A stretch of 60,095 bases of DNA from Candidatus Aenigmatarchaeota archaeon (GTDB taxonomy: Archaea; Aenigmatarchaeota; Aenigmatarchaeia; CG10238-14; SpSt-28). This document shows, in pieces, positions 15,428 through 22,010 of this stretch; positions within the stretch are counted from its first letter, which is position 1, and each line of letters starts with the position of its first letter. The notes beneath the pieces are model-generated. The model searched no databases. It was not told the DNA's origin and worked only from the letters and a program-made list of their open reading frames with translations. Where the stretch lies: assembly GCA_049976365.1 (NCBI GenBank), contig JBMFIJ010000001.1, positions 1 to 60,095 of the forward strand. Reading direction: 5' to 3'. The position numbers and the translations under genes are program-made.

Positions 15428-16447
15428 ATGGCTGGAAAGGAAATAACCATAAAAATACCAAGTTTTAGCCTGAAAAACAACTTTTGGAAAATATTGTCTC
15501 TGTTATTATTAGTTGTTTTAATTGGAACGAATTATCAAATAATTTCAGGTAGATTTTTGAGTTCGTACTCATCTCCACAAGAAATAGGTAAAAAAGTTAT
15601 AGATTTTATAAACAACAATTTAGTACAACCTGGAACTTCAGCCGAATTAATTAATGTAAGTGATAAAGGAAGCTATTATGAAATTTGGACGAAGTATAGG
15701 GGCACAGAAATTCCAGTGTATGCAACAAAAGACGGTAAAACATTATTTTTACAGGCTATTGAGATTAAAGAAACTATAACTCAAGCAACAGAAACTCAAA
15801 CAAATAAAGCTCAATCGTCTCCAAACATTCCTAAAAGAGATATACCAGATGTAAAAGTATTTATAATGAGTTATTGTCCATTTGGTATTCAAGCTGTTAA
15901 AGCGTTATTACCAGTTATGAAACTTTTAGATGGAAAGGCAAATATTTCTATTCATTACGTTTATTATGTAATGCATGGAGAAAAAGAGGTATATGAGAAT
16001 TTGAGGCAGTATTGTATACAAAAGGATCAAAGAGAAAAGTTTTATGATTATATGTTATGCTTTGTTCAAAGCGGAGATTATCAAAAATGTATTAATGAAG
16101 CAAAAATAGATGTTAATAAGTTGAATCTTTGCATGAATGAAACCGATGCTAAGTTTAATGTAACAAAGAATTATAAAGACAAAAGTAGTTGGTTAAATGG
16201 ATACTATCCTTTATTCTTAGTTGAAAAGGATTTGAATGATAAATATAATGTTGGAGGATCACCAACGATAATAATTAATGATCAGGAAGTTAGTATAAAC
16301 AGATCACCAGAAGCATTTAAGGAAGCTATATGCAGCGCTTTCACTAATCCTCCAGCAGAGTGCAACGAAAAACTTTCTAGTGAAGTAGCATCTCCAGGAA
16401 TAGGTCCATTAACTGGCGGTTCTAGTTCGAGTGGCTCTTGTGGTTAA
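15428..16447 (+). CDS. Membrane-anchored extracytoplasmic DsbA/thioredoxin-fold protein (monothiol CPFG site)
   Basis: N-terminal TM anchor; thioredoxin-fold start VKVFIMSYCPFGIQAV; several further Cys; GGSPTIIIN (cis-Pro loop-like); Ser/Gly tail. Confidence 0.55.
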   Translation: MAGKEITIKIPSFSLKNNFWKILSLLLLVVLIGTNYQIISGRFLSSYSSPQEIGKKVIDFINNNLVQPGTSAELINVSDKGSYYEIWTKYRGTEIPVYATKDGKTLFLQAIEIKETITQATETQTNKAQSSPNIPKRDIPDVKVFIMSYCPFGIQAVKALLPVMKLLDGKANISIHYVYYVMHGEKEVYENLRQYCIQKDQREKFYDYMLCFVQSGDYQKCINEAKIDVNKLNLCMNETDAKFNVTKNYKDKSSWLNGYYPLFLVEKDLNDKYNVGGSPTIIINDQEVSINRSPEAFKEAICSAFTNPPAECNEKLSSEVASPGIGPLTGGSSSSGSCG

Positions 16448-16449
16448 AA

Positions 16450-16962
16450 TTAGCTAACTAATATCTTTCTAAATTCTTCTTTTAATTTTATAATGTTCGT
16501 CTTTCCGTATTTTTCCTTAGTAATTATCCCTCTTTTAATAAGTTTTTCTATTACTCTATATGAATTTACCTTTCCAATATTTCTAGAAATTTTTGATTGC
16601 GTTATTTTACCATCGTTTTCTATCAACATTTTTATTACCAGGCTTTCACTTGGTTCGAATATTTTTAGCAATAGACTAAAATCTTTATTTTCTCCTTTTG
16701 TAAAATGCTGTGAAAATATGTAAAAGGAAATCAAACCAATAAGTATACCAAAAGAAGAAAACATCGGTATTAAAAGAGGAATTGGTAGTGTGCAAGAACA
16801 AGCTTTACCTTCAATTATTTGAGTCTGCGCATATAATGTTGCAAAAGAAACTGCAAATATAAATCCAGAAAGAATAGCCCCAAAAACTAGAATTATTTTT
16901 CTACCCAGCTTCATATTTAGTATTTGGCCTTTATTTATATAGGTTTCACTTTTTGAAACCAA
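16450..16962 (-). CDS. Membrane-tethered winged-helix transcriptional regulator; likely start 16914
   Basis: Two TM helices bracket a loop with KACSC, followed by a MarR/TrmB-like wHTH: LVIKMLIENDGKITQSKISRNIGKVNSYRVIEKLIKRGIITKE. Confidence 0.55.
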   Translation of the reverse strand: MVSKSETYINKGQILNMKLGRKIILVFGAILSGFIFAVSFATLYAQTQIIEGKACSCTLPIPLLIPMFSSFGILIGLISFYIFSQHFTKGENKDFSLLLKIFEPSESLVIKMLIENDGKITQSKISRNIGKVNSYRVIEKLIKRGIITKEKYGKTNIIKLKEEFRKILVS

Positions 16963-16993: not shown

Positions 16994-18268
16994 ATGAAAA
17001 AAATTGAAGAAATCTTAAAAGAAGATAGAATTAAGGAAGCTAAAAGATCTTTTCAGAAAGCATATTTTACGTATATAATAAATAGAGAAAAAGCAATGAA
17101 AGACGTAAAAGTTGAAGAGTTAAAAAAAGAGCTGAGAAAAATTAAGGAATATTCAATTGATAATATAGAAAATCTTAAGAGAGAAGCTATTAAAAATTTA
17201 GAAAGAAACGGAATAAAAGTTTATGAAGCTAAGAAAGCAAAAGACGCCGTTAGAATTTTTAAAAAAATTGTTAAAAAAAGAGAAAGAATTGTTAAATCTA
17301 AATCTAATGTGATTCATGAAATTGGTTTAATAGAAAAAATTGAAAATAGGAATGAAGTTATAGAGACTGATTGTGGAGATTTTCTAGTTCAAATTTGTAA
17401 TGAAAAACCTTCGCATCCTGTTACACCGGCTCTTCATATCCCTATTGAAAAAATGGTCAGTATAATAGAAAAAAGATTTAAAGTTAAATTAAAGCCGAAT
17501 GCAAAGGAGATAGCTAAGTGGGTTAGAGAATATTTAAGAGAAAAAATAAGAGAAGCTGATGTTGGTCTGACAGGAGCTAACGTTATTTCTTCTGATGGCT
17601 CTATTTTCATTTTAGAAAATGAAGGAAACATTTCTTTAGTTAGCAGAATACCAAGGAAACATGTTATAATAACCTCAATTGATAAAATTGTTCCCACTAT
17701 TAAAGATGCCATTTTGATTTGTAAAGCCTCTTCTATTTGGGGTACAGGTTCATCTATGCCAGCTTATGTAAATGTTATTTCCTCTCCTTCAAAAACTGCT
17801 GACATTCAAAAAGAAATTGTTTATGGAATGCATGGTGCTGAAGAAGTTTATTTAATTTTATTGGATAATAATAGGTCAGAAATTGCAAAGAGCGAGCTAA
17901 AAGAAATTTTATACTGTATAAATTGTGGTGCATGCTTGTATGTATGTCCAGTTTATAGGCAAATATTTGATTATTATGGGTTTAATTATTTTGGCGGAAG
18001 GGGGGTTGCTTTATCTTCTCTAATTTATGGATTAAAAAAAGGTTATGAAAATGGTTTGTATTATTGCACAACTTGTATGGCATGTAAAGAAATTTGTCCT
18101 TTAAGCATAGATGTACCAAAGCTAATTAGAAAAGTTAGAACTCTTGCTTTGAAGAATGATATAACTACTGAAAGCGTAAGGCAAATGCTAGAAAATATAG
18201 AAGTTTCAGGAAACCCATTCGGCGAGGAAAAAGAAGGTATAATTCCGGATAAACTTTATTGTTGTTAG
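16994..18268 (+). CDS. LutB/HdrC-like protein: LUD domain plus two 4Fe-4S motifs
   Basis: CINCGACLYVCPVY and CTTCMACKEICPLS (two CxxCxxCxxxCP motifs) follow an N-terminal LUD/DUF162-like domain; 424 aa. Confidence 0.65.
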   Translation: MKKIEEILKEDRIKEAKRSFQKAYFTYIINREKAMKDVKVEELKKELRKIKEYSIDNIENLKREAIKNLERNGIKVYEAKKAKDAVRIFKKIVKKRERIVKSKSNVIHEIGLIEKIENRNEVIETDCGDFLVQICNEKPSHPVTPALHIPIEKMVSIIEKRFKVKLKPNAKEIAKWVREYLREKIREADVGLTGANVISSDGSIFILENEGNISLVSRIPRKHVIITSIDKIVPTIKDAILICKASSIWGTGSSMPAYVNVISSPSKTADIQKEIVYGMHGAEEVYLILLDNNRSEIAKSELKEILYCINCGACLYVCPVYRQIFDYYGFNYFGGRGVALSSLIYGLKKGYENGLYYCTTCMACKEICPLSIDVPKLIRKVRTLALKNDITTESVRQMLENIEVSGNPFGEEKEGIIPDKLYCC

Positions 18269-18276
18269 GTGGTTTT

Positions 18277-19566
18277 ATGAGTTTCAAAAAAATATTAATT
18301 CTTCTTTTTGTTTTGAGTTTGTTTATTAATGTTGCTTTAGGAGAAAAAGTATGTGTTTACATTTTTTATGGAGAAGGTTGTCCACATTGTAAAGAAGCTA
18401 GAGAATTTTTAAGTGAGTTAAAAAATAAGTATGAGTTAGAAATTCATGAATTTGAAGTTTATTATAATAAGAGTAATCAAAAATTGTGGGAAGAGGTTTC
18501 AAAAGCTTACAATGTAAAACCAATAGCAGTTCCAGAAATGTTTATCGGAAACAAAGCTTTTGTTGGATTTGCTTATGGTTCTCAAGAAGTTTTTGATAAT
18601 AGTTATAATGCGTGGGTTGGATATAGTGACATAATAGAAAAAACGATTAAGGAGTACTCAGATAAAGGCGTTGCTTGTCCTTCAATTTCAGGCAATTTCT
18701 CTTTGGTTAATTCAAACAATTTTGGCAATCTTTTCATTTACTCATTATTAGCTATCTTACTAATGTTTATTTTCTATCTAGTTTTCAAAAAAGTTAAAAT
18801 AAGAGTTAAAGCACTGATTTTGTTAGTAGCGTTACTATTCTCTTTTTCTCAAGCTTTTGCTTTTGATGCTAATAGTTTACCAACAAATTTACCCTTACCT
18901 TTACTAGGTGTTATTTTAGGATTGCTAGATGGCATTTTCAATCCTTGCGCACTTTCTGTTCTTCTTTTTATGATAGCATATCTTTTGTCTATCAACCTTA
19001 GAAAGAGAATGTTAATAGTTGGCTTTGTCTTTTCAGTCATGATTTTTACAGTTTACTTTTCATTTATGGTTGGAGTTTTCACAGTACTTCAAATACTTCC
19101 ATATATGGAGTTAATTAGAAACGTCGTTGTTCTATTACTAATAATATTTGGAGCAATTGAGATAAAAGATTTCTTCTATTATGGTAAAGGTTTCTCTCTT
19201 TCCATACCTTCTTTTGCTCACAAAAAAATAGAAAAGCTGATTAAAGCAGGAACAATACCTGCTGCTCTTCTTTTAGGATTATTAGTTAGTTTAGTAGAAA
19301 TACCTTGTGCTGGTGCTTTTCCATTTGCTTATACTTTCATACTAGCATCTAAAGGTATTTCAAAAGAGTTATCAATACTGTATATAATTTGGTATAATAT
19401 CTTTTTTGTATTCCCCCTAATTGCACTGACTATTTTCTTCTATTTTAGTTTTAAGAAGATAGAAAAAGCTGAAAAAACTAGAAAAAAACTGAGAAGATAC
19501 ATGAGGCTTGTTGCAGGTTTGATTATGATATTGCTAGCAATATTAATGTACTTAAGGTGGTTATAA
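18277..19566 (+). CDS. Fusion of a secreted glutaredoxin/thioredoxin-like domain (CPHC) with a CcdA/DsbD-type transmembrane thiol-disulfide transporter
   Basis: SD AGGTGG (18267-18272) then ATG 18277; the ORF track starts at TTG 18259. Signal peptide, YGEGCPHCKEA, then a 6-TM core with the paired motifs FNPCALSVLLF and VEIPCAGAFP. Confidence 0.7.
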   Translation: MSFKKILILLFVLSLFINVALGEKVCVYIFYGEGCPHCKEAREFLSELKNKYELEIHEFEVYYNKSNQKLWEEVSKAYNVKPIAVPEMFIGNKAFVGFAYGSQEVFDNSYNAWVGYSDIIEKTIKEYSDKGVACPSISGNFSLVNSNNFGNLFIYSLLAILLMFIFYLVFKKVKIRVKALILLVALLFSFSQAFAFDANSLPTNLPLPLLGVILGLLDGIFNPCALSVLLFMIAYLLSINLRKRMLIVGFVFSVMIFTVYFSFMVGVFTVLQILPYMELIRNVVVLLLIIFGAIEIKDFFYYGKGFSLSIPSFAHKKIEKLIKAGTIPAALLLGLLVSLVEIPCAGAFPFAYTFILASKGISKELSILYIIWYNIFFVFPLIALTIFFYFSFKKIEKAEKTRKKLRRYMRLVAGLIMILLAILMYLRWL

Positions 19567-20310
19567 ATGTCATGGCTTGATAAATTATTAGGAGGAAACA
19601 TTCTTTATTATCCAGGATGCTTAACAAAATTTGTAGCTAAAGATTTGAAGAAAAACTATGAAAAAATTTTGGAATTGTGTGGAATAGAATTTATTGAATT
19701 GTCTGATAAAGAGGTTTGTTGTGGTTCTCCAGCTTTAAATGCAGGAGCTGAAGACACTTTTAAGATGCTTGCAAAAAAGAATTTTAAAGTTTTTAAAGAG
19801 CATGCTATAAAGAAAATTATATTTTCTTGCCCTGCTTGCTTTAAAACATTTTCACAAGATTATAGGGAATTGTTTGGAGAGGAATGGAAAATAGAATGCG
19901 AATATATTTTGATAACAATTATGAGGGCATTAAAAGAGGGTAAGATAAAAATTAAAAGAAAATTTAAGGAAAGAGTGACTTTTCACGATCCATGCTATTT
20001 AGCTAGATATTCAGAAATAATTAATGAACCTAGAGAAATTCTAAAAATGCTAGGCTTTAAAATAGTGGAAATGGAATTTTATGGCAAGAACACTTTTTGT
20101 TGTGGTGGTGGAGGAGGACTACAATCTAATTATCAAGCTCTGGCTAATGAAATAGCTGAAGAAAGAATAAGTCAAGCTAAAAAAATAAAAGTTAAAACAA
20201 TTATAACATCTTGCCCTTTATGTTATTTACACTTGAAAAGAAATTCTAAAGGAATAAAAGTCATGGAGATTTCTGATATAATTATTAGTGCTATTGAAGA
20301 AAAGAAATAA
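19567..20310 (+). CDS. LutA/HdrB-like (Fe-S) protein with two CCG domains
   Basis: EVCCGSPA...SCPAC and TFCCGGGGG...SCPLC, the two CX(n)CCGX(m)CXXC cysteine-rich domains; 247 aa. It starts one nt after the upstream stop. Confidence 0.7.
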   Translation: MSWLDKLLGGNILYYPGCLTKFVAKDLKKNYEKILELCGIEFIELSDKEVCCGSPALNAGAEDTFKMLAKKNFKVFKEHAIKKIIFSCPACFKTFSQDYRELFGEEWKIECEYILITIMRALKEGKIKIKRKFKERVTFHDPCYLARYSEIINEPREILKMLGFKIVEMEFYGKNTFCCGGGGGLQSNYQALANEIAEERISQAKKIKVKTIITSCPLCYLHLKRNSKGIKVMEISDIIISAIEEKK

Positions 20311-20582: not shown

Positions 20583-20628
20583 AATAAATATTTATATTAA
20601 TAATTATGAAAAGTATAAAAATTATACT

Positions 20629-21057
20629 ATGAGCGAGGATAAGGAATTAGAAAAAATTAGAAGGAAAAAGTTGAATGAACTAATGAAAAGATATGGTTTA
20701 GAGAGCTCTTCAAAAAAAATACCAAGTATAATAGAGGTAAATGATAGTAATTTTAGAGAAAATGTAATAGAGTTGTCAAAAAAAATACCAGTATTAGTTG
20801 ATTTCTATGCAGATTGGTGTTACCCTTGTAAAATTTTATCACCAGTTTTAGAGAAAATTGTTAAAGAAAATAGCGGAAAAATTGTTTTAGCTAAAATTAA
20901 TGTTGATAAATCTCCAATTACAGCAGGTGAATTTGGTATAATGAGTGTACCTACAGTAATTCTTTTTAAAGATGGTGAAGCAATAGATAGATTTGTCGGA
21001 GCATTACCGGAACCATACATAAAAGAGTGGCTAAAAGAGGAGGTTATGATTGTATGA
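20629..21057 (+). CDS. trxA: Thioredoxin (WCYPC active site)
   Basis: VLVDFYADWCYPCKILSPVLEKI...VPTVILFKDGE. ATG 20629 is preferred over the upstream alternative start at 20566. Confidence 0.85.
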   Translation: MSEDKELEKIRRKKLNELMKRYGLESSSKKIPSIIEVNDSNFRENVIELSKKIPVLVDFYADWCYPCKILSPVLEKIVKENSGKIVLAKINVDKSPITAGEFGIMSVPTVILFKDGEAIDRFVGALPEPYIKEWLKEEVMIV

Positions 21058-22010
21058 ACGAAATGTATGATGTAATAATAGTTGGAGGAGGGGCAGCAGG
21101 ATTAACTGCTGCAATTTATGCAGCGAGAAGACTGTTGAAAACACTTATAATAACTTTAGATATAGGAGGGCAAGCATTGCTAACGGATCAAATAGAAAAT
21201 TATCCTGGTTATTTAGGAAAAAGTGGAATAAAGCTTATGAAAATATTTGAGGAACAAGCAAGGAGTTTTGGTGCAGAAATTTTAATAGGTTATGTTACAA
21301 AAATAGAAAAAGTAGATGATCATTTTAAAGTTATAAGTAATGTTGGAGAATATGAAACAAAAGCAGTTATAATTGCGGCAGGAAAAGTTCCAAGGAAACT
21401 GAATGTTCCAGGAGAAGATAAGTTTTTAGGAAGAGGAGTTAGTACATGTGTAACTTGTGATGCACCATTTGCAAAAAATAAAATAGTTGCTGTAGTAGGC
21501 GGGGGAAACTCCGCTTTAGAAGGAGCAGAAGTTTTGTCTAAATTTGCAACTAAAGTCTATTTAATTCATAGGAGAGATGAGTTTAGGGCAGATGAAATAA
21601 CTGTAGAAAAAGTTAAAAAGTTATCAAATGTTGAATTTGTTTTAAACACAATTGTTACAGAAATAAAAGGCGATAAAAAATTAGAGAGCATCATTATAAA
21701 GAATGTAAAGAGCGGAGAAGAAAGAGAACTTAAGGTTGATATGGTATTTCTAGAAATTGGTCATGAGACTAAAATAGATTTTGTAAAACATTTAGTAAAA
21801 GTAGATGAATATAATCAAATTATAACCAATAAATTAGCTGAAACAAGTTGCGAAGGAATTTTTGCTGCGGGTGATGTTACGGATTCTCCTTACAAGCAAC
21901 TAGTAATAGCTGCAGCAGAAGGAGCAATAGCGGCCTTATCAGCTTATAATTATATAGCAAAAAAAGAGGGAAAGACTGGAATTAAAGTTGACTGGAAAGG
22001 AGGTGGTTAA
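21054..22010 (+). CDS. trxB: Thioredoxin reductase
   Basis: YDVIIVGGGAAGLTAAIYAAR (FAD), CVTCDA redox centre, VVGGGNSALEGA and HRRDEFRA (NADPH), GDVTD. ATGA overlap with the trx stop. Confidence 0.9.
   Translation: MNEMYDVIIVGGGAAGLTAAIYAARRLLKTLIITLDIGGQALLTDQIENYPGYLGKSGIKLMKIFEEQARSFGAEILIGYVTKIEKVDDHFKVISNVGEYETKAVIIAAGKVPRKLNVPGEDKFLGRGVSTCVTCDAPFAKNKIVAVVGGGNSALEGAEVLSKFATKVYLIHRRDEFRADEITVEKVKKLSNVEFVLNTIVTEIKGDKKLESIIIKNVKSGEERELKVDMVFLEIGHETKIDFVKHLVKVDEYNQIITNKLAETSCEGIFAAGDVTDSPYKQLVIAAAEGAIAALSAYNYIAKKEGKTGIKVDWKGGG

Follow-up and report, generated by a model that had tools for sequence, protein, structure and literature searches.

A CcdA-like thiol relay gene within a LUD/CCG iron-sulfur gene cluster of Aenigmatarchaeota and a possible quinone-free route for transmembrane electron transfer

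Why should the gene for a membrane thiol relay lie between the genes for two subunits of a soluble iron-sulfur (Fe-S) enzyme? This arrangement is found in a 60,095-nucleotide stretch of DNA (contig JBMFIJ010000001.1; the whole stretch is hereafter called the window) from the assembly of an Aenigmatarchaeota archaeon, which totals 571 kb and is 88.6% complete. The source is a DPANN archaeon: both the 23S rRNA gene and the RNase P RNA of the window are archaeal, and the nearest relatives of its proteins bear the name Aenigmatarchaeota. Three of its genes are the subject of this report: a LutB/HdrC-like gene, a gene for an exported thioredoxin-fold domain joined to a CcdA-like membrane core, and an HdrB/LutA-like gene. 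Comparison with related genomes and metagenomes makes a functional link of some kind between the Fe-S module and the CcdA-like relay very likely, and their linkage points to an undescribed, quinone-free form of transmembrane electron transfer. Also new here, judging from the sequences, is an invariant Cys-Cys pair with which the Fe-S subunit ends throughout this clade. Full-text searches of the literature, including searches on lactate utilisation, DPANN archaea and Patescibacteria, uncovered no account of a relay of the CcdA/DsbD type in linkage with a LUD/CCG enzyme.

Products of the three genes

The three genes are co-directional (plus strand, as are all their features given below) and tightly packed. 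The LutB/HdrC-like gene (16994-18268; 424 aa) ends with a stop codon at 18266-18268, and the membrane gene (18277-19566; 429 aa) starts with the ATG at 18277. The junction reads ...TGT TGT TAG GTGG TTTT ATG. A Shine-Dalgarno-like sequence, GGTGG, occupies 18268-18272 and lies eight bases ahead of the start codon. An alternative TTG start at 18259 would lengthen the membrane protein to 435 aa and would overlap the upstream gene. At the second junction (...AAGGTGGTTA TAA ATG), the stop codon at 19564-19566 is followed without any spacer by the ATG at 19567 of the HdrB/LutA-like gene (19567-20310; 247 aa), and these two genes share one reading frame. Junctions of zero to 8 nt, together with the position of the CcdA-like gene between two enzyme subunits, suggest that the products are co-assembled.

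The LutB/HdrC-like protein carries a LUD domain (PF02589, 147.9 bits, Pfam E 6.5e-43; 17183-17863), putatively its 2-hydroxyacid-binding or dehydrogenase part, a dicluster domain (Fer4_8, E 2e-13) and a C-terminal Cys-Cys tail. The dicluster domain contains two CX2CX2CX3CP ferredoxin-type motifs (C308-P319 and C358-P369; 17915-18100), and all eight of their cysteines (C308/311/314/318 and C358/361/364/368) are invariant in homologue alignments A3 and A4. The HdrB/LutA-like protein has two CCG domains (PF02754, E 9.3e-37; 19600-19851 and 19975-20238), each with a full five-Cys motif that is conserved across 21 homologues. Both HdrB-type noncubane-cluster motifs, CX(n)CCGX(n)CXXC, and both HdrC-type [4Fe-4S] motifs are therefore intact.

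In comparison with curated NCBIfam models, the pair aligned to the two halves of the fused enzyme LdhH (NF045670, 706 positions), of which the LUD-Fe-S protein covers positions 4-389 and the CCG protein 468-705; the scores were 299.6 and 134.7 bits, where the cut-off is 800. The LUD-Fe-S protein scored 278.3 bits with the LutB model TIGR00273 (cut-off 444.8), and a Pfam scan found no DUF3390 in it. The best NCBIfam match of the CCG protein was TfrB (positions 263-485, E 7.4e-45, below the cut-off). Scores with HdrB (TIGR03288) and HdrC (TIGR03290) were 55 and 34 against cut-offs of 345 and 160, and the GlpC model was also matched by the soluble proteins, far below its curated cut-off. Because all models of named enzymes were missed by a wide margin, the soluble pair is, on its sequence, a split LutAB/HdrBC-type Fe-S module that is the equivalog of no named enzyme. 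Proteins of the fused, LdhH-type length (650-720 aa) were numerous among the representatives searched, a Rosetta-stone argument that the two soluble proteins belong together. The assembly holds a single LUD match, so that no second LUD protein (LutC) was found there, nor was one found in related clusters. A PF02754 search of the assembly found no second CCG protein elsewhere, and an HdrA-like gene is absent from the window cluster and from all related clusters examined.

In the membrane protein, an N-terminal hydrophobic leader precedes an exported domain with the active-site motif CPHC (residues 35-38; 18379-18390). AlphaFold2 (AF2) modelled this domain as a thioredoxin (Trx) fold with a predicted local distance difference test score (pLDDT) above 95, and Foldseek matched it to thioredoxins and glutaredoxins with a probability of 1.0. 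CPHC is the commonest motif among linked Trx-fold partners and is also present in fusions from Diapherotrites and from the candidate phyla radiation (CPR). Two extra transmembrane (TM) helices (residues ~149-193, AF2 helices 149-170 and 177-193; 18721-18855) separate the domain from the core. In split relatives one TM helix ends the glutaredoxin-like (Grx) gene and one opens the CcdA gene, which suggests that the extra pair is a relic of gene fusion. The Trx-fold part and the core are adjacent separate genes in many relatives, and the fusion in the window is thus a derived state.

The core (18895-19551) has six TM helices in a 3+3 repeat. Its motifs FNPCAL (residues 221-226) and EIPCAG (341-346) hold Pro223-Cys224 (18943-18948) in TM1 and Pro343-Cys344 (19303-19308) in TM4. 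N222, P223, C224 and C344 were invariant in 71 homologues, and P343 was invariant in a core alignment of 41 sequences. The AF2 model of the core (pLDDT 85.5) consists of six long helices, of which TM1 and TM4 are interrupted at the cysteine, and the two halves align in register with NPC matched to IPC (hhalign, 81 columns, E 0.0033). Loop charges fit an N-out/C-out topology, so the C-terminus of the core is predicted to lie outside the cell; a read-through fusion to the CCG protein by a one-residue linker would impose an incorrect topology. Three hallmarks of CcdA are present: the 3+3 helix repeat, Pro-Cys in TM1 and TM4, and an extracytoplasmic CxxC Trx-fold partner. A homologue (P0086; phmmer E 1.2e-42 to the window protein) passes the Pfam DsbD_TM model with 29.3 bits (cut-off 27.1). 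Foldseek with the full-length model returned Trx-fold matches only. Because the architecture and cysteines of CcdA are kept but the window protein misses the DsbD_TM profile, the core is CcdA-like, with membership at the superfamily level only.

These results agree largely with a preliminary description of the window, made from the sequence. The gene boundaries and three-gene layout that it gave are borne out by the open reading frames and junction sequences, the membrane protein has every feature it listed (leader, CPHC glutaredoxin-like domain, TM segment, FNPCAL and EIPCAG), and its view of the soluble pair as an HdrBC/LutAB-like module without LutC fits both the alignment to the two halves of LdhH and the single LUD match. 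Its term "CcdA core" holds for the architecture and the cysteine positions; as an assignment to the Pfam DsbD_TM/CcdA family it does not.

The LUD-Fe-S protein ends with the tail GNPFGEEKEGIIPDKLYCC (18209-18265), in which codons 18260-18265 specify Cys423-Cys424. LUD-Fe-S proteins of the clade share the consensus GNPFG-x(8-14)-[YFH]CC at their very end. The terminal CC was present in all homologues at genome loci (19/19) and at metagenome loci (77/77), is kept in the Fer4-only proteins of a variant cluster with a GlcD-type oxidase (described below), and was seen as well in homologues from Diapherotrites, Micrarchaeota and several Patescibacteria (CPR). Methanobacterium-like and Helarchaeota relatives lack the tail and end at a G[NST]PF motif or a few residues beyond it; the CC end is also missing from canonical LutB of 460-480 aa and from the fused forms of 650-720 aa. 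The CCG partners of tailed enzymes were 43-51% identical to the window CCG protein, even across domains, compared to 30-31% for partners of untailed enzymes, whereas the LUD proteins themselves were about equally distant in the two groups. By analogy, the tail is a candidate for a mobile redox arm, a swinging Cys-Cys pair that would serve as substrate of the CCG site. The preliminary description does not mention the tail; contact through such an arm is more plausible than a CCG protein that touches the membrane cysteines itself.

Linkage of the iron-sulfur module and the CcdA-like gene

The sample of genomes comprised 301 Aenigmatarchaeota genomes. A search of the genome contigs with a single window protein gave only 3 loci, and breadth beyond close relatives comes from a representative search and a profile search. 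The 80 metagenome loci, found with a LUD profile, are close relatives only (at least 50% identity) and supply counts, not breadth. The preliminary description had treated uniqueness of the arrangement to this contig as the outcome that would speak against a link; searches found the arrangement again in several Aenigmatarchaeota families, in a Diapherotrites genome and in metagenome loci, and it is not unique.

A CcdA-like match was found in 189 of the 301 genomes, LUD-Fe-S in 37 and CCG in 39, the last two in nearly the same genomes. LUD and CCG genes were in the same cluster at 28 of the 30 best CcdA-like loci. All 32 complete LUD genes adjoin a CCG gene, and 31 of them also adjoin a CcdA-like gene. 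LUD was present in 28 of 29 genomes with the close CcdA subtype (E <= 1e-40), and this subtype was found in one (G050) of the 266 genomes that lack a strong LUD match (E <= 1e-50). Of six genomes scored as having LUD only, five hold a more divergent CcdA-like gene in the cluster. In the metagenomes, every locus long enough to judge (53/53) has CcdA-like and CCG genes beside LUD.

The linkage outlasts fission or fusion of Grx and CcdA and shuffling into at least six gene orders: LUD-GrxCcdA-CCG, LUD-Grx-CcdA-CCG, LUD-CCG-CcdA-Grx, LUD-CcdA-Grx-CCG, GrxCcdA-CCG-LUD and LUD-NUDIX-HAD-GrxCcdA-CCG. It also outlasts replacement of the dehydrogenase. In G261 (L039, G261:C21, 1268-4745), which like G009 belongs to another family, the cluster reads GrxCcdA, CCG, a GlcD-type FAD oxidase (PF01565 and PF02913) and a Fer4-only protein ending in LYCC. 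The same CCG-GlcD-Fer4 trio is present in G009 (L040, G009:C29, 2783-4997). The FAD oxidases of this variant are 411-414 aa long and the Fer4-only proteins 122 aa, with GNPFG...LYCC. No other observation hints as strongly that the module serves as the electron input as this swap of LUD for another substrate-oxidising dehydrogenase, in which the Fe-S, CCG and CcdA parts were kept.

Some clusters carry additional or altered genes. The trio of G009 is flanked by a DUF1573 protein and an exported Trx-like protein with three repeats, which take the place of CcdA. In one genus a HAD-family hydrolase gene lies between LUD and the rest of the cluster (L042 3593-4668, L041 6894-7996, L037 5713-6309); it is joined by a NUDIX hydrolase gene in G011 and by a second short unannotated reading frame in G164. 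A malic-enzyme-like gene (446 aa, judged by eye) lies directly 5' of LUD in G011 (L042 943-2283) and might supply pyruvate or NAD(P)H. In rearranged clusters (L034 3822-4583, L035 3570-4334, L038 2121-2909) the exported CPHC partner is larger (~255 aa), contains an additional Cys-rich region and matches no Pfam family.

Outside the Aenigmatarchaeota, a metagenome-assembled genome of Diapherotrites has the order LUD-Grx(CPHC)CcdA-CCG, which extends the linkage to a second DPANN phylum, and another archaeal contig reads winged-helix-turn-helix-GrxCcdA-CCG-LUD. The untailed outgroups (Methanobacterium-like and Helarchaeota) have a plain CCG-LUD pair. One CPR genome with a tailed LUD-CCG locus carries, on another contig, a CPHC-Trx-CcdA fusion of the same subfamily (E 1e-72). 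Among 151 genomes of one CPR order, 11 have a CC-tailed LUD and 11 have a member of a sharply separated top group of CcdA-like genes (E <= 1e-68; next best 2e-56); nine have both, always on different contigs (Fisher's test p = 3e-11, a figure that overstates independence because the genomes are related). On several CPR contigs (L135 2297-6368, L138 1356-6263, L139 1-6260) the same unrelated genes, YgjP-like and RNase_H_2/DNA_pol_B_exo2-like, split CCG from the tailed LUD, so that the arrangement is conserved but interrupted.

A proposed route for electrons and its alternatives

We propose that the three genes encode a single membrane-associated electron-transfer unit. The LUD-2x[4Fe-4S] and two-CCG proteins would form a cytoplasmic heterodimer like HdrBC or LutAB, and this module would oxidise a 2-hydroxyacid, perhaps lactate, the default of the family. 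Electrons would travel via the two ferredoxin-type clusters to the CCG subunit and reduce a disulfide at its noncubane-cluster site, most plausibly that of the vicinal Cys423-Cys424 pair if the flexible tail acts as a swinging arm. From the cytoplasmic side, the arm would then deliver the two electrons to Cys224/Cys344 in the core, and the core would hand the electrons to the exported CPHC domain, which would reduce targets at the cell surface. Such a chain, as the preliminary description also suggested, might be independent of thioredoxin. There is precedent for a CCG subunit that acts on a protein: DsrK reduces the protein-borne Cys-S-Cys of DsrC (PMC10861901).

On balance we judge this outward flow, from 2-hydroxyacid through the Fe-S/CCG module, the Cys-Cys arm and the CcdA-like pair to the CPHC domain, to be somewhat probable, because both alternative dehydrogenase modules belong to substrate-oxidising families, because the superfamily of the relay is known only to work outward, and because the lactate couple can reduce a DsbA-like disulfide. 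To our knowledge, all characterised DsbD, CcdA and ScsB proteins move electrons outward, and we know of no member that works inward. The lactate/pyruvate couple, at about -190 mV, is able to reduce a DsbA-like CPHC disulfide at about -120 mV. A further suggestion is that the unit is a minimal electron-export chain, built of Fe-S clusters and cysteine pairs only, that runs from a 2-hydroxyacid to an external or host-derived oxidant, acts as a sink enabling hydroxyacid oxidation beyond any role in envelope repair, and was exchanged between two domains as a functional set; we regard this as doubtful. DPANN archaea and some CPR bacteria have, as far as we know, no quinones and no respiratory chain.

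Several observations weigh against this proposal or against parts of it. The window protein gave no match to PF02683 (DsbD_TM/CcdA) at E <= 0.01. Foldseek of the core model against the PDB gave a best E of 0.1, to a protein other than CcdA (the solved CcdA structures are nuclear magnetic resonance models and possibly irretrievable by this route), and a sequence-profile search of the PDB with the core found nothing at E <= 10. Eleven core sequences likewise gave no PF02683 match at E <= 1 (SfLAP was matched in seven and DsbD_2 in one), and the sole Pfam match of the window core was SfLAP (30 bits, below the cut-off). The co-occurrence counts are drawn from related genomes and hence overstate independence. 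The genome G050 has the CcdA subtype without LUD or CCG, and in G008 a LUD-HAD-CCG cluster lies on one contig and the Grx-CcdA gene on another. In CPR, tailed LUD and CCG genes lie close together with no CcdA-like gene within 5 kb at all five loci. Since tailed enzymes occur without a neighbouring CcdA-like gene in CPR and in G008, the tail is a feature of the enzyme and no proof of contact with CcdA; the idea that the tail is restricted to loci with an adjacent CcdA gene is ruled out by the CPR loci. The choice of lactate is affected as well: neither a lactate permease nor an Ldh-family gene was found in the assembly, and with LutC also missing lactate is unsupported as the substrate. One NAD-type 2-hydroxyacid dehydrogenase is encoded elsewhere in the assembly. 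The conventional donors of CcdA, thioredoxin and thioredoxin reductase, are encoded next door, and with these at hand the Fe-S module would be unneeded for CcdA reduction. Lastly, the oxidase DsbA has this same CPHC motif, and neither DsbB nor VKOR was found in the 88.6%-complete assembly, findings that the reverse direction fits equally well.

With flow reversed through the same complex, the CPHC domain would oxidise surface thiols like DsbA, the core would carry electrons inward, the CCG site would oxidise the Cys-Cys arm in the way that TfrB does with CoM-SH and CoB-SH, and at the LUD site a 2-oxoacid, pyruvate for instance, would be the end acceptor, so that disulfides would be formed without quinones. 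The exported motif, which is identical to the active site of E. coli DsbA and predominates among linked partners, would suit this role, as would the missing DsbB and VKOR, the exported DsbA/GILT-like protein encoded 0.5 kb upstream and near the operon in relatives, and the thiol-oxidising TfrB as best match of the CCG protein. We nonetheless consider reverse flow rather unlikely: it would require a DsbD/CcdA superfamily member to work inward, a CPHC dithiol would be a poor reductant for pyruvate at the potentials given above, and the enzyme that replaces LUD is a GlcD-type FAD enzyme from a family of known substrate oxidisers. Coupling could also be indirect, with the LUD-Fe-S/CCG pair acting as a soluble 2-hydroxyacid:thioredoxin (or other disulfide) oxidoreductase, by a logic like that of ferredoxin:thioredoxin reductase, with CcdA reduced by thioredoxin and the genes forming one thiol-redox regulon. 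The adjacent thioredoxin genes, which come immediately after the CCG gene at L048, L054 and L071, favour this idea, and so do the CPR enzymes that work without a neighbouring CcdA and the setting of the operon in a thiol-redox island. Set against these are the facts that linkage to the thioredoxin genes is the exception and linkage to CcdA the rule, that the tight junctions and the place of the CcdA gene between enzyme subunits suggest co-assembly, that a normal thioredoxin, at about -270 mV, is beyond the reducing power of lactate, and that the enzyme still co-occurs with a specific CcdA subfamily in CPR. Indirect coupling is therefore unlikely in our judgement.

Two further explanations dispense with electron transfer between the module and the relay. 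An ordinary LutAB-type dehydrogenase and an ordinary CcdA might simply have been inherited together in one lineage. Most of the evidence does come from related genomes, and the untailed outgroups do have a plain CCG-LUD pair, but mere co-inheritance is disfavoured, and very unlikely, in view of a linkage that persists through the gene orders, fissions, fusions and dehydrogenase replacement described above, that recurs in a second DPANN phylum and as unlinked co-occurrence in CPR bacteria, and that leaves the CcdA subtype in just 1 of 266 Aenigmatarchaeota genomes without LUD. Alternatively, the Cys-Cys tail might bear a persulfide or trisulfide, as DsrC does, that is reduced by the CCG site, and the membrane protein might move sulfur species instead of electrons. 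The action of DsrK on the Cys-S-Cys arm of DsrC (PMC10861901) offers a model for this, and SfLAP, the one Pfam family that the core matches, is a non-redox family of the LysE clan. Genes for sulfur transferases, rhodanese, TusA or DsrE are not found in the conserved cluster, however, and one cysteine per core half at the CcdA positions, together with a fused CxxC Trx fold, is the signature of a dithiol-disulfide relay. Sulfur trafficking is accordingly highly improbable.

If the proposed outward chain is correct, a direct connection from Fe-S clusters to a cysteine relay would constitute a third mode of transmembrane electron transfer. All transmembrane thiol relays known to us (DsbD, CcdA, ScsB) are fed by thioredoxin and NADPH, and all membrane partners of CCG/Hdr-type Fe-S enzymes that we know of are haem- or quinone-based. 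The chain would tie a hydroxyacid, and hence central carbon metabolism, to thiol chemistry at the cell surface in organisms without electron transport chains, and would bear on redox balance, on the protection and folding of surface proteins and perhaps on the host interactions of ultra-small episymbionts (DPANN and CPR). Were the reverse direction true, cells that lack both DsbB and VKOR would have in this unit their missing pathway for disulfide formation. The invariant terminal Cys-Cys is a simple mutational handle on the mechanism.

Known systems and neighbouring genes

The membrane protein resembles CcdA, DsbD and ScsB, in which electrons pass from thioredoxin through a membrane Cys pair to a Trx-fold partner such as ResA, CcmG, DsbC or ScsC. 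It shares with them the six-helix 3+3 core with Pro-Cys in the first helix of each half and an exported Trx-fold partner with CxxC, to which it is fused in the manner of DsbD or ScsB, and one of its homologues reaches the DsbD_TM model. It differs in that it fails that model itself, gave no match to a solved CcdA structure in the searches above, and has its gene between those of two Fe-S dehydrogenase subunits, instead of depending only on a distant trxA. The organism also lacks cytochrome c maturation genes, and the exported motif is of the DsbA-type, CPHC. A role of the CcdA-like protein in cytochrome c maturation was ruled out: no cytochrome c assembly protein was found in the assembly (no Cytochrom_C_asm match), so that its sole CcdA-like gene does not serve this process.

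The soluble pair is like LutABC/LldEFG/YkgEFG and the fused LdhH (Desulfovibrio Ldh) in having a LUD-Fer4 protein and a two-CCG protein that jointly cover LdhH end to end. Unlike these enzymes it is split, lacks LutC and DUF3390, scores far below the equivalog cut-offs, and adds the invariant GNPFG...CC tail and a membrane thiol-relay gene in the operon. With HdrBC, HdrD and DsrK (of DsrMKJOP) it shares a Fer4 subunit that feeds a CCG subunit with thiol/disulfide chemistry at a noncubane site; HdrD and DsrK are CCG proteins docked on membrane partners (HdrE and DsrM), and the substrate of DsrK, DsrC, is a protein that bears cysteines (PMC10861901). In those systems the membrane partners are haem-b/quinone proteins and not a cysteine relay, whereas the window cluster has no HdrA, scores far below the HdrB and HdrC cut-offs, and has a vicinal Cys pair at the extreme C-terminus of its own Fe-S subunit. 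The GlcD-like, Fer4 and CCG genes of G261 and G009 are like GlcDEF or FAD-type D-lactate dehydrogenases with a GlcF (Fer4 plus CCG) that has been split, but the Fer4 piece has the CC tail, the cluster in G261 adds Grx-CcdA, and no GlcE was identified in the cluster. Parallels to the tail lie elsewhere. High-Mr thioredoxin reductase has a C-terminal redox arm, GCUG or, in Drosophila, SCCS, and MerA has a C-terminal Cys-Cys; in both, adjacent redox cysteines on a flexible tail shuttle electrons or ligand from a buried site to an external partner. These are unrelated flavoenzymes, and the likeness is a functional analogy only.

The window forms a thiol-redox island around the operon, in which genes for an HxlR regulator, a PDO-like protein, NAD kinase and GDH are also found. 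On the minus strand, directly 5' of the LUD gene, is a membrane-anchored winged-helix regulator (DUF7343, Pfam E 1.8e-8; 16450-16962) with a C-S-C motif in the loop between two TM helices. A divergent DUF7343 homologue lies directly 5' of LUD at 46 of 60 evaluable metagenome loci and at most genome loci, and the loop motif ACSCTLPIP is conserved in 10 of 13 homologues. The protein is a candidate thiol-sensing regulator of the operon. In three genomes with the order LUD-CCG-CcdA the loop retains one cysteine only.

The exported DsbA/GILT-like protein (15428-16447, plus strand) has CPFG, with a single cysteine, at the active-site position and a Ser/Gly-rich C-terminus that ends in SCG. Its homologues were found within a few kb of the operon in L046, L047, L049, L050, L070, L072, L074 and others. 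On the other side, 300 bp 3' of the CCG gene and behind the divergent HxlR gene, are the thioredoxin and thioredoxin reductase genes (20626-22010, plus strand; Pfam Thioredoxin E 1.9e-27, Pyr_redox_2 E 3.5e-49), which are not part of the conserved core and are missing from most loci. The thioredoxin (20626-21057) has the active site WCYPC, where the canonical sequence is WCGPC. Its gene and the start of the reductase gene overlap by about 30 nt.

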